From Promethearchaeota archaeon (lineage in GTDB: Archaea > Asgardarchaeota > Lokiarchaeia > Sigyniarchaeales > SOKP01): a stretch of DNA of 50,434 nucleotides. The DNA lies in contig JAFGGO010000106.1 in assembly GCA_016930515.1 (NCBI GenBank), forward strand, positions 1 to 50,434. Reading direction: 5' to 3'. Under the pieces are notes generated by a model, which ran no database searches, was not told where the DNA came from, and saw only the letters and a program-made list of their open reading frames with translations. Both the position numbers and the translations under genes were made by a program. Below, one piece after another: positions 6,418-10,656 of the stretch (the stretch's first letter is position 1; each line of letters opens with the position of its first letter).

Positions 6418-6864
6418 TTTATCTCGACGCCAATATCTTTATTTATGCCTTTTTCAAACCTAAAAAAGGAAAAGTTTTATCTGAAAAAATAAAATGGTGT
6501 AAGAATGAGGCAAAATCAATAATATCAAGTATAGACGCTGAAGAAAAACAGTATTGCATTTCTTTAATTCAATTATCGGAGGTTATTAACTTGTTAAAAA
6601 ACGCCATGAATTGGGATTCGTTACAAGAGTTCGTCATGGGCCTTATTTCAAATAACGCTATTGAGGTAATCTAAATAACCAAGTTAGAATACATTAATGC
6701 AGTTAGCAAGATGAAGGATTTGAAAATGGACGCTAACGATACATCAGCTTATCTCTTGATGAATAAAAAAAAACATAAAAGAGATTTATAATTTTGACAG
6801 GCATTTTGAGTTATTATCGGATAAAAAATGCCTTCCAGAAATACCCGAAAAATTTAAGAAATAA
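6414..6864 (+). pseudogene. PIN-domain (VapC-like) toxin, disrupted by a nonsense codon and a frameshift
   Basis: MIYLDANIFIYA...LSEV, then TAA 6672-6674. The frame continues ITKLEYINAV...MDANDTSAYLLM; removing one A from the A9 run (6765-6773) gives NIKEIYNFDRHF...KK* ending at 6864. Confidence 0.85.
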
Positions 6865-6937
6865 TAATTATCTGTCGTATTTTATAATAGTATATAATAA
6901 AAGAAGATTTGATGTAAATAATAAGTCATTGCAGGCT

Positions 6938-7339
6938 CTACACTCGCCTGCCCCGATGACCACCTTTACGCCTGCAGTGGTCATGACTCTTTGGAGTTGT
7001 CTCCTCGATTCTTCCCACGTTTAGCCCCGACCTCGCTAAAGCCCTGATGCAGGCCTGAGCGCCAGGACCTGGCGTTTGTGACTTGTTTCCGCCCGGTGCC
7101 CTTACTTTAATGTGTATTCCTGTGACTCCTTTATCCTTCAATTCGTTAGCGGTTCTAAATCCACATTGCATGGCAGCGTACGGATTTGATTGATCCCTAT
7201 CGGCCTTAACAACCATCCCGCCGCTACATTTCGCAAGCGTTTCTTGTCCGCTCAAATCGGTGGCAGTTACGATCGTGTTATTGTAGCTACTAAAAATGTG
7301 GACGATTGCCCAGTACTCTTTTCTATCTCTTTTACTCAT
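6938..7339 (-). CDS. rps11: 30S ribosomal protein uS11
   Basis: [33 protein letters not shown]. Confidence 0.98.
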
Positions 7340-7357
7340 GTTTTAAACCTCATTGCG

Positions 7358-7855
7358 TTATTTTTTGGCTCCCGCAAACGGACTTGCGCTCGCAAAGCTG
7401 ATAAAGTCTTCCTCTTCTCTTTTCACGAGATAAGAAGGGGAATTTACTCTTTTTTCTCCAACTTGAACGTGCTTGTGAACGATCATTTGTCTTGCCTCGT
7501 AAATCGATTTTGCCATGCCTTTTTCAAAAACCATGGTTTGCAACCTTCGTTTTAGTACTTCTTCGACCGTGAGCAATAGTATATCTTCGAACTCGGCTTC
7601 AGAGCCTAAAATGCCCAAGCGGTTCAATTTTCTAAGGAGTTCTTGCTGAACCTCCTTGGCTTGCTCGGGCGGAAGCGATCTCGACCTTCGAGCAATGTCT
7701 CTCCAGTTTCCCAGCATGGTACGCGATTTCCAGAACTCTCGCTTGTTTCTCAAGCCGTATTTTCCTAGAAATTCTAGCTCTTCAGCAAGTCTTTCCCTTT
7801 CGAAGGGTCGTTTGGGTTTCTTGAACTTTTTTTTTAGTCGTCTCGGGTCTCCCAT
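7358..7855 (-). CDS. rps4: 30S ribosomal protein uS4 (archaeal type)
   Basis: MGDPRR...YGLRNKRE...RRLQT...ARQMIVH.H...PSYLV. Confidence 0.98.
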   Translation of the reverse strand: MGDPRRLKKKFKKPKRPFERERLAEELEFLGKYGLRNKREFWKSRTMLGNWRDIARRSRSLPPEQAKEVQQELLRKLNRLGILGSEAEFEDILLLTVEEVLKRRLQTMVFEKGMAKSIYEARQMIVHKHVQVGEKRVNSPSYLVKREEEDFISFASASPFAGAKK

Positions 7856-8147
7856 TATACAATCACAATGCGCGTTTAAAGAAATAAGTTCTCAATTGTT
7901 CTTACTTCGTTAATTTGTACTTTAGTATAACGTAAGGACCATTATTAATTTTTTCATTTTCAACTTCTTTACTGGAAAATACCTTGAAACGATTGGATTA
8001 TATATTGATTTACAGGTCAAAATAACGATAGTGGAGGATACTATCAAATAATATTCGATCAACCATTTAATCTCGTACTGAAAGAATCTGATGTTTTTTT
8101 TAATAAATAGGCAAATCAAAAATAAGGTGGTGCGAGTAAATTTAGAA

Positions 8148-8633
8148 TTACTTTTGACCTCTTTTCTTCCGAACGACGCCAATAACAAGCCCGTGTCGAC
8201 CTGTGGATTTCGTTCGTTGACCCCTTACTTTCAATCGGAAGTGGTGCCTGACGCCCTTGTAGCTCTTGATGCGCTTCATTCGATCGATGTCTCGCTTTAC
8301 GGTAATGTCCAATTGGTTTCCTATAACGTGCTTGTCGCCTCCATCCCTGAGGTCGTTCTTTCGATTGACCATCCAATTTGGAACCCCGTATTTAATCGGG
8401 TCCAATATGATTTCTTCGATATTATTAAGGTCTTTTTCCCCCAACACTCCAATCCGGATGTTGGGATCCACATTTGCAACCATGACTACCGCTTGAGCAA
8501 ATCTCCGTCCCACGCCTCTAATTTGCGTTAAGGCGTGCTCCACTTTCGAGCTACCATCGACTTGCGATCGAAGCTTTCGGAAAAACACTTTTTCCCGATA
8601 ATTTTTTGGTCGTATTGCTGGTACCGAACTCAT
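8148..8633 (-). CDS. rps13: 30S ribosomal protein uS13
   Basis: ALTQIRGVGRRFA, PNWMVNR, SYKGVRH...VRGQRTKSTGR. Confidence 0.97.
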   Translation of the reverse strand: MSSVPAIRPKNYREKVFFRKLRSQVDGSSKVEHALTQIRGVGRRFAQAVVMVANVDPNIRIGVLGEKDLNNIEEIILDPIKYGVPNWMVNRKNDLRDGGDKHVIGNQLDITVKRDIDRMKRIKSYKGVRHHFRLKVRGQRTKSTGRHGLVIGVVRKKRGQK

Positions 8634-8742
8634 ATAAGATCAATTCTTTTATTAACTACTATGGTTAGTAAAAAGCAGAATTTAATATTAATTTTTTGGT
8701 TTCGATCTCTTAGAAGTAGGTTTTGAATTATTTAAGACAATT

Positions 8743-9183
8743 TTACTCCTTTTTTACGATTTGCATGCCCCTAACACCAGATTTTTTGCGATGTCTCCAG
8801 CCCTTAAAACTCTTCATTCGCTTCATCATATCGATATCGCATTTTGTGGTAATATCTAATTGGTTGCCTATATAGTGATCGTTCCATCCATTCTTAAAAT
8901 CATATTTTCTATTAAGCATCTCGACAGGAACGCCGTGCATTTCAGGATTCAAGGCTATCTCTTCGATTCGATCAAGATCGATTTGTTCAAGCGCCCCAAT
9001 TCGAATATTAGGATCTATTTTAGCAATCATAATTATCAGTTGAGCATATTTTTTGCCAATACCCCTGATTTGAGTTAAGGCGCGCTCTACTTTTGAGCTT
9101 CCGTCTACTTGAGATCGAAGCTTTCGGAAAAATACTTTTTCTCGGTAATTATCAGGTCTAATTGCTGGTATAGTATCATCCAT
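8743..9183 (-). CDS. rps13: Second, divergent uS13 paralog lacking the C-terminal tail
   Basis: N-terminal ~40 aa nearly identical to 8148..8633; colinear up to VRG, then ends MQIVKKE. Confidence 0.85.
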   Translation of the reverse strand: MDDTIPAIRPDNYREKVFFRKLRSQVDGSSKVERALTQIRGIGKKYAQLIIMIAKIDPNIRIGALEQIDLDRIEEIALNPEMHGVPVEMLNRKYDFKNGWNDHYIGNQLDITTKCDIDMMKRMKSFKGWRHRKKSGVRGMQIVKKE

Positions 9184-9369
9184 TTTCGAAACCTCTTGAT
9201 AATTATAATCACTAAGGATTAATATTGATATTCATTGTGAGTATTAAAGCTTAAATGATGACAAAATCCTAGACTTTACTGAATGAAAGTTAAAAAATTC
9301 AAATAGTATCGCATGTAATCTTATTATATCACAAGAAGATTAACCCAATAAAAAGGATTTTTTGAAAAC

Positions 9370-10656
9370 ATGCTTGACATCGAATTGTTCCGAACGAACC
9401 TTGAAAAAATAATAGGATCGGAAAAAAAAAGGTTTAAAGATCCAATAAACGCGGAAAAGACGCTGGAATACGATACAAAATGGAGAAATACCATAACGGA
9501 ATTACAAAAATTAAGGCAAAAAAGAAACGAAATAAACAATCAAATTAATAACTATAAGAAAAGCAAGGAAAATGCGAAAGCTGAAGAAGCAATAAAAACA
9601 TCCAAGGAATTAAAAGACCAGATTGAAGTTTTAGAAAGAAATGAGAAAGAATTCCTTGAAAAGAGAGATGATTTTCGCTACAAGGTAGGGAACATCATAC
9701 ACGAATCCGTACCGATCGCCGAGACCGAGGAAGGAAACAAGGTGGAAAGAACGGGGGGACAGCACCCAAAGTTCTCATTTACTCCTTTAAATCACGTTGA
9801 CCTCGTAGAAACGGGTTTTGCTGACACGAAAAAGGCCGCAGAGATCGCAGGTTCGAGGTTTTACTACCTTCGGGGCGATTTGGTCATGCTCAATCTTGCG
9901 CTCTTGAAATTTGCATTGGATATTTTAGAGAAGAAAGGATTCGTTCCCATGTGGACCCCATTTTTCGTAAAACACGAAGTAATCAAGGCAGCAGCCGAGT
10001 TAGCGGATTTTGAAGATACTCTCTATAAGATACAAGATGAAGATCTTTACATGATTGCAACTTCGGAACAAACGATTGCGGCGTTCCATTACAACGAAAT
10101 CTTGGATCCCGAATCGCTTCCATTCAAATACGCGGGTGTGTCGTCGTGCTTTAGGAGAGAGGCGGGTTCGCACGGTAAGGATACCTTGGGAATTTTTAGA
10201 ATTCACCAGTTCGAAAAGATCGAGCAATTCATCTTTTGCAAGCCAGAAGAATCGTGGCAATTTCACGAAGAACTCATTTCAAACGCCGAAGAGATATACA
10301 AGCAATTAGAGCTCCCCTATAGGATAGTTAACATTGCGTCCGGTGATCTTAACGACAACGCCGCAAAGAAATACGACCTTGAAGCGTGGTTTCCAGCCTC
10401 TAATACTTATCGAGAGCTCGTATCGTGTAGTAATTGCCTTGATTATCAGGCTCGAAAGCTCAAAATAAGGATGGGAAAGGTCGGGGGAGCAACGGAAAAA
10501 CAAACGGTTCACACGCTAAACTCGACGGCCATTGCTACGGAAAGGACGATTTGTTGCATTTTAGAAAATTACCAAAACGATGACCAGACCGTCAGGGTAC
10601 CAAAAGCGCTTCAAAAATATATGAACGGCAAAAAGATTATAAACCCCGTTAAATGA
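9370..10656 (+). CDS. serS: Serine--tRNA ligase
   Basis: N-terminal coiled coil; ATSEQ, CFRREAG, RIHQFEKIEQF, ELVSCSNC, HTLNSTAIATER. Confidence 0.98.
   Translation: MLDIELFRTNLEKIIGSEKKRFKDPINAEKTLEYDTKWRNTITELQKLRQKRNEINNQINNYKKSKENAKAEEAIKTSKELKDQIEVLERNEKEFLEKRDDFRYKVGNIIHESVPIAETEEGNKVERTGGQHPKFSFTPLNHVDLVETGFADTKKAAEIAGSRFYYLRGDLVMLNLALLKFALDILEKKGFVPMWTPFFVKHEVIKAAAELADFEDTLYKIQDEDLYMIATSEQTIAAFHYNEILDPESLPFKYAGVSSCFRREAGSHGKDTLGIFRIHQFEKIEQFIFCKPEESWQFHEELISNAEEIYKQLELPYRIVNIASGDLNDNAAKKYDLEAWFPASNTYRELVSCSNCLDYQARKLKIRMGKVGGATEKQTVHTLNSTAIATERTICCILENYQNDDQTVRVPKALQKYMNGKKIINPVK

Follow-up and report, generated by a model that had tools for sequence, protein, structure and literature searches.

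A lineage-restricted uS13 paralogue without the C-terminal tail, apparently kept by purifying selection in an Asgard archaeon

A Promethearchaeota genome (GCA_016930515.1) carries a second, shorter gene for the ribosomal protein uS13 directly upstream of the canonical one, and the protein that it encodes lacks the C-terminal tail. Comparison of the whole 50,434-nt stretch analysed here (contig JAFGGO010000106.1, hereafter the window) with related genomes indicates that this short copy is a real, lineage-restricted and selected uS13 paralogue, and that it is dispensable. As to its role, the reading that we prefer, and to which we give a little less than an even chance, is that the short protein may occupy the uS13 site as a low-abundance alternative to the canonical one, giving subunits that would lack the contact between uS13 and tRNA. 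The features of the locus are listed in Table 1.

Table 1. Features of the uS13 locus in the window
Feature	Coordinates	Strand	Description
Short uS13 paralogue	8743..9183	minus	441-nt ORF, 146 aa + stop
Canonical uS13	8148..8633	minus	ORF, 161 aa + stop; full C-terminal tail
uS4	7358..7855	minus	ORF; Pfam S4 at same position in L023 (GCA_048941705.1) and L024 (GCA_016839425.1)
uS11, last of cluster	6938..7339	minus	ORF; PF00411 at same position in L023 and L024
serS (seryl-tRNA synthetase), divergent	9370..10656	plus	ORF; PF02403 + PF00587 at same position in L023 and L024
Intergenic block between uS13 copies	8634..8742	minus	A/T-rich, TATA-like (AAAAAATTAATATTAAAT)
Divergent intergenic region serS/short uS13	9184..9369	minus	A/T-rich TATA-like elements
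Segment missing from GCA_016839425.1	8757..9208	minus	452 nt; global alignment

The uS13 locus, its history and its distribution

The earlier note on this DNA had described two adjacent uS13 genes, and this is borne out: both ORFs are intact, lie on the minus strand and match PF00416. The gene order on that strand is short uS13, canonical uS13, uS4 and uS11, with 109 nt between the uS13 copies. The two proteins are 64% identical over 139 amino acids (BLASTP, E=9e-66), and no uS13 match beyond these two was found in the 4.0-Mb genome. Against PF00416 (cut-off 31 bits), the canonical protein scores 132 bits and the short one 86.3 bits, with residues 23-140 of the latter aligned to model positions 4-120 of 128; it is a member of the Pfam family. 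The short protein scores below the cut-offs of both NCBIfam equivalogs (103.9 vs 175.55 for TIGR03629, uS13_arch; 111.4 vs 159 for NF003140). The canonical protein, which shares 80-93% identity with its counterparts in relatives, passes NF003140 (176.4, cut-off 159) and with a score of 165 is itself below the TIGR03629 cut-off of 175.55. By position, the short gene adjoins the uS13-uS4-uS11 cluster on its upstream side, both in the window and in L023. We conclude that the short protein belongs to the uS13 domain family and should not be annotated as "the" 30S protein uS13, given that it fails the equivalog thresholds and that the signature motif is gone. Its orthologue P0002 is publicly annotated as 30S protein uS13.

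P0002 (153 aa) is the best non-self match to the short protein in a search of 5.8 billion proteins, and it comes from a 663-kb contig of GCA_048941705.1. The same contig also encodes a canonical 161-aa uS13, and the gene order is identical, with serS divergent from short uS13, which is followed by canonical uS13, uS4 and uS11. Since that assembly is independent, the arrangement is neither an assembly artefact nor private to the window's genome. An error of assembly or binning, in which two strains or a contaminant were collapsed into a tandem, might be suspected in a 190-contig MAG with 5.3% estimated contamination. Yet the two copies lie this close together on one 50-kb contig with normal flanks, their divergence is far beyond strain variation, and the tandem recurs in the second assembly, all of which make the chance of such an error practically negligible.

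We built a maximum likelihood tree (LG+C20) from 29 uS13 sequences. The two short copies form a clade with support of 100/98, which is nested (98/97) in a clade otherwise containing only the canonical uS13 of the window genome, GCA_016839425.1 and GCA_048941705.1. Four species of the same genus (G001, G002, G004 and G005), whose loci were inspected, have a single uS13 that branches outside the larger of these two clades. According to our tree, the duplication is recent, having occurred after the split from the single-copy species of the genus. It took place in an ancestor shared by the window genome, GCA_016839425.1 and GCA_048941705.1, where a tandem copy arose at the head of the uS13-uS4-uS11 cluster, and the whole C-terminal extension, with the RGQRTKSTGR motif and the basic tail, was lost before those lineages split. 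The two short copies inherited their truncated architecture from their common ancestor. The stem of the short clade (0.47) and its tips (0.39 and 0.55) are long compared with the canonical tips (0.04-0.10), which indicates a burst of change after the duplication and amino acid evolution that has since been 4-5 times faster than that of the canonical protein.

The closest relative of the window genome by canonical uS13 (93%), uS4, uS11 and serS is GCA_016839425.1, which has no short uS13; the serS neighbour is kept in all three genomes. The spacer between serS and uS13 in this relative, 276 nt long, is collinear with window positions 9369-9209 joined directly to 8756-8634. Of the missing segment, 25 nt are leader and 427 nt belong to the short gene (441 nt), whose last codons and stop remain in GCA_016839425.1. 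The absence in this genome is secondary and is due to a clean deletion. As the gene was deleted in the closest relative, it is dispensable, and any role that it plays is non-essential.

The earlier note had also drawn attention to a block that is identical in the two proteins and is encoded by different codons, and this observation holds: NYREKVFFRKLRSQVDGSSKVE is the same in both, and 9 of its 22 codons differ, all of them synonymously. Recent gene conversion was considered as the cause of this identical N-terminal block and rejected, third-position identity between the copies (0.54) being no higher than between genomes. With no sign of recent conversion, the block reflects constraint at the protein level.

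Among the nearest species representatives, each of the 40 with a match has one uS13 only, the four inspected species of the genus included. In a survey of 100 Asgard genomes at least 95% complete (match threshold E<=1e-12), two uS13 matches were found only in the window genome (G000), G226 and G231. The second match of G231 is a contig-end fragment, so among these near-complete genomes only G000 and G226 carry a second intact uS13. Searches of the 5.8 billion proteins with a single sequence and with a two-sequence profile returned no short-type member other than P0002, and two motif-pair DNA patterns, both validated by their matches to the window and L023, gave 0 matches in JGI metagenome contigs and GTDB species genomes. 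The short uS13 is known from two genomes only. The rarity of such copies agrees with the statement in the earlier note that core ribosomal proteins are rarely duplicated in archaea, as does a published survey of 87 archaeal genomes, which counted 26 ribosomal protein paralogues among 5,412 proteins, most of them S10 of haloarchaea (Yutin 2012, PMC3353972); a word search of the main text of that paper found no mention of S13.

Many Asgard genomes yield extra matches to PF00416. In the five genomes checked, these are ORFs of 220-277 aa that score about 22 bits, and they were rejected as uS13 copies. Such weak matches (L030-L034, e.g., G005:C60:13852-13992) are sub-threshold and cover model positions ~16-77, and because of them naive counts of uS13 copies can be inflated. 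No co-duplication of the partners uS19 and uL5 was found: both are single-copy in the window genome, and there is thus no co-duplicated "alternative head". The longest ORF for uS19 (L039 1252-1809, plus strand, G000:C27) has a run of about 45 residues, almost all Asp or Glu, before the conserved core, which is either a real N-terminal extension or an over-long ORF call.

A second type of uS13 paralogue occurs in related Loki-type genomes (L035 3133-3750, minus strand, G226:C47; L036 2824-3465, minus strand, G230:C120; P0176 and P0177). It consists of the uS13 core up to VRGQRT or variants of it (VRGRRT, VRGRS), followed by a conserved C-terminal alpha/beta domain of ~80 aa that matched no Pfam family and has only two database relatives. 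The second type resembles the short uS13 in the archaeal family, in the retained uS13 core and in the replacement of the native tail. Unlike the short uS13, it lacks the N-terminal AIRPKNFREKVFF segment, is located near pyrB and eL42 and does not form a tandem with the canonical gene. A normal uS13-uS4-uS11 cluster is present in G226 as well (L038), and in G230 the second-type gene is the only uS13 match found. The second type arose independently and at a different locus, so this archaeal family has put the uS13 body to new use at least twice.

The spacer between canonical uS13 and uS4 measures 292 nt in the window vs ~560 nt in the relatives. There it holds an ORF of ~95 aa, very basic and hydrophobic at the C terminus (L024 6634-6921, plus strand, and the homologous L023 ~7200-7480), which has no Pfam match and is absent from the corresponding gap in the window (7856-8147).

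Selection, codon usage and upstream regions

Between the two short orthologues, dN is 0.26-0.27 and dS is 1.4-1.7, and dN/dS is 0.19 by NG86 and 0.16 by ML and YN00. LWL85 gives a higher dN/dS for every gene, with 0.37 for the short pair. In the same genomes and with the same estimators, LWL85 excepted, dN/dS is 0.03-0.06 for canonical uS13, 0.06-0.07 for uS4 and 0.005-0.02 for uS11. The uncorrected pN/pS of the short pair is 0.35, with a bootstrap 95% interval of 0.26-0.48 and a maximum of 0.58 in 5000 replicates. When neutral evolution was simulated at 0.35-1.0 substitutions per site, no more than 0.5% of runs per lineage kept a 146-codon ORF open; the simulation left out indels, so this estimate of survival is conservative. 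Taken from these sequence comparisons, the short uS13 is evidently under purifying selection and is intact in two genomes. Selection had been suspected in the earlier note, and it is supported by the low dN/dS, and by the ORF and truncated architecture kept in a second genome at which synonymous divergence is saturated. The decaying duplicate with dN/dS near 1, which the earlier note had set against its own reading, is rejected. The short gene shows neither frame disruption nor a dN/dS near 1, as a pseudogene would, and the description that suits it best is that of a paralogue that has diverged while purifying selection maintained it.

A slowly decaying duplicate without function, in which the constraint observed is a remnant, would nonetheless explain a number of our observations: amino acid evolution 4-5 times faster than in the canonical protein, a dN/dS raised 3-5 times, the loss of ribosomal protein codon bias and of the signature motif, the complete deletion of the gene in a sister lineage, and the replacement in the window's copy of two arginines kept in the orthologue. 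We regard slow decay as very unlikely. The dN/dS of 0.16-0.19 is well below 1, and not one of the 5000 pN/pS bootstraps exceeds 0.58; the ORF is intact in two lineages that are at least 1.4 apart in dS, an outcome that the neutral simulation seldom produced; and the same truncated end, together with several derived residues, is conserved in both orthologues.

The GC3 of the short gene is 0.35, which is the 52nd percentile of the 1,836 long ORFs of the genome and is like that of ordinary neighbouring genes. Canonical uS13 has a GC3 of 0.50 (97th percentile), uS4 of 0.46 and uS11 of 0.49, and these genes and serS all fall between 0.46 and 0.50, in the 92nd-97th percentiles. The difference between short and canonical genes goes in the same direction in GCA_048941705.1. 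With codon usage as a proxy, expression of the short uS13 is probably low or conditional.

Window positions 8756-8634 comprise the block between the uS13 genes and 14 nt from the end of the short gene; over these 123 nt, the identity to GCA_016839425.1 is 87%. The block is largely conserved in GCA_048941705.1 too, though synonymous sites are saturated. Its A/T-rich part of ~80 nt (8634-8715, minus strand), which contains AGATCGAAACCAAAAAATTAATATTAAATTCTGC, is far better conserved across the three genomes than synonymous sites; this part is probably a promoter and leader, and it could also be a regulatory element. From the conserved stretch upstream of canonical uS13 we infer that this gene very probably has its own promoter and leader, with the short gene as a separate or additional transcription unit. 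Upstream of the short gene, a GAGG located 9-12 nt before the ATG is a putative Shine-Dalgarno sequence, and the divergent intergenic region shared with serS is a putative promoter. An Rfam scan of positions 6500-9800 (E<=1) found no RNA family.

Elements kept and lost in the short protein

The short protein ends in VRGMQIVKKE in place of the canonical tail, just as the earlier note had read it; the canonical protein ends in VRGQRTKSTGRHGLVIGVVRKKRGQK. After VRG, the short protein continues with MQIVKKE and a stop and the canonical protein with QRTKSTGRHGLVIGVVRKKRGQK, which means that the last 23 canonical residues (QRTKSTGRHG...RKKRGQK) are replaced by MQIVKKE. The N-terminal globular domain and the basic helix are kept, and the RGQRTKSTGR motif and the basic tail are gone. 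Both short orthologues have deletions at the columns of this motif, RGQRT(K/R)(S/T)TGR, which are conserved to 90% or more among 40 canonical uS13 sequences from Asgard archaea; P0002 finishes in K-x-E. Downstream of the short gene, nothing is left that encodes the tail. A hidden exon or mRNA intron that would restore the tail was considered and rejected, as no downstream frame encodes the motif and the DNA there forms the conserved leader of canonical uS13.

In the 40 canonical Asgard sequences, 96 alignment columns are at least 90% conserved. Both short copies leave 53 of these columns unchanged, mostly in the N-terminal half, and 27 are changed in both, ten of them being the deleted T.STGRHGLV.G columns; a further 16 are changed in one short copy only. 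Other near-invariant residues changed in both are W88, E67/K68, L96, V129, K136 and Q140. The two arginines replaced in the window's copy and kept in its orthologue are at the C in TKCDID and at R119M. Residues specific to the paralogue and common to both orthologues include LEQ.D, NPEM.GVP, GWNDH and MKSFKG, and the conserved Trp is lost. The short proteins are basic (pI 9.7 and 10.2), although their net charge (+9/+12) is roughly half that of the canonical ones (+20/+22). The short protein matches RPS18e of PDB 4bts with E=1e-24. In its AlphaFold2 model, the N-domain (residues 10-85) is confident, and the helix and C terminus have pLDDT <60, so the model supports no structural argument about the C terminus.

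In archaeal ribosomes, the C-tail of uS13 enters the major groove of the anticodon stem of the initiator tRNA at the P site (PMC7005279), in agreement with the earlier note, which had placed the tail towards the P-site tRNA. The protein also participates in bridge B1b/c (PMC7005279), which is formed by uS13 and uL5, and uS19 tightly contacts uS13 (PMC10380927). Mapped onto these contacts, the short paralogue appears to retain the surface-exposed, bridge-forming body and to lack the whole segment that threads through the head rRNA to the P site.

Possible roles and comparison with known systems

The best-kept residues of the short protein are in the N-domain, which makes B1b/c with uL5 and the uS19 contact, and in the basic helix up to MKSFKG..H. 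From this we infer docking: the short protein would still bind at the uS13 position on the head of the small subunit, as a sub-stoichiometric competitor of canonical uS13. A minority of subunits would then have no uS13 tail touching the anticodon stem of the P-site (initiator) tRNA. The lost segment is the one that threads into the head rRNA, so stable binding of the short protein may be impossible. The changes at near-invariant residues and the halved net charge also speak against this reading, as do the single-copy state of uL5 and uS19 and the confinement of the gene to two genomes. Moreover, the clean deletion in the closest relative and the genome-average codon usage weaken the idea of an important ribosome variant and suggest a dispensable, low-abundance protein.

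A stronger version would be an archaeal form of "specialised ribosomes", in which tail-less uS13 replaces the canonical protein on a fraction of 30S heads under some condition; we judge this unlikely. If it were true, the contact of the tail with the anticodon stem would be removed and signalling through B1b/c altered, and the selection of start sites or tRNAs would change. It would be a natural, selected isoform switch of a ribosomal protein in an Asgard archaeon. Asgard archaea are the prokaryotic group closest to eukaryotes, in which switching between ribosomal protein paralogues is common.

It is somewhat unlikely, in our estimate, that the short protein works off the ribosome, as an RNA-binding protein in which the domain and helix are re-used, for example to regulate the uS13-uS4-uS11 cluster or some other RNA. 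The protein has lost the rRNA-threading tail and key canonical residues, yet it is basic and under purifying selection, and it has conserved residues of its own (GWNDH, LEQ, NPEM) that are absent from canonical uS13. The codon usage is that of an ordinary gene and not of a ribosomal protein gene, the short gene lies directly upstream of the strongly conserved canonical leader, and the independent paralogue with a foreign C-terminal domain in related genomes indicates that the uS13 domain has been re-used before. Against this, Rfam detects no RNA element in the scanned region, the leader is equally conserved in the genome without the paralogue and hence independently of it, and conservation is highest on the surface that uS13 uses in the ribosome.

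A factor acting outside translating ribosomes is another alternative: the short protein might bind transiently to the pre-30S head as an assembly placeholder, or to uL5 of the 50S through the B1b/c surface as an anti-association factor, and be replaced by, or compete with, canonical uS13. A bridge-forming N-domain kept without the anchoring tail would give reversible binding, and both the low expression suggested by codon usage and the dispensability of the gene fit such a factor. The reasoning is purely architectural, though, and we found no such uS13-derived factor in the literature searched; we consider this role distinctly unlikely. Our preference stays with the low-abundance occupant of the uS13 site.

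Compared with canonical archaeal and eukaryotic uS13 (S13P/RPS18), the short protein shares the fold family, the N-terminal domain and helix, and the gene cluster; it differs in being a second copy that lacks the motif and tail, evolves faster and has no ribosomal protein codon bias. The alternative ribosomal protein paralogues of bacteria (e.g., the Zn-ribbon C+/C- pairs of L31, L33, L36, S14 and S18; Makarova 2001; Yutin 2012, PMC3353972) are likewise diverged, selected second copies in which a structural element of the primary form is missing, and by analogy a condition-dependent replacement in the ribosome may be a further likeness. In the bacterial pairs, however, the element lost is the Zn-binding cysteines, and incorporation has been shown. 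The short uS13 is archaeal and has lost a tail that contacts rRNA and tRNA.

In Escherichia coli, ribosomes tolerate the loss of the last part of the S13 tail: the passage of PMC2709574 that cites Hoang et al. 2004 reports that S13 delta 113-117 has no appreciable effect on P-site tRNA dissociation. Those truncations, as described there, are engineered, remove 5 residues and affect the only copy, whereas the short uS13 is a natural second copy lacking ~23 residues, including the motif. Pairs of the yeast RPS18A/B type likewise place two uS13 genes within a genome and raise the idea of ribosomes specific to one paralogue. Unlike the window's pair, which is 64% identical with one member truncated, such eukaryotic copies are nearly identical, full-length and both highly expressed.

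The significance of the short uS13 is moderate, as the gene comes from two uncultured genomes only and was lost in a third. The locus represents a natural experiment on what a uS13 body does without its tRNA-contacting tail, one that selection appears to have kept for a long time. Should the short protein enter ribosomes, the lineage nearest to eukaryotes would provide a rare archaeal example of ribosomes that differ in composition.
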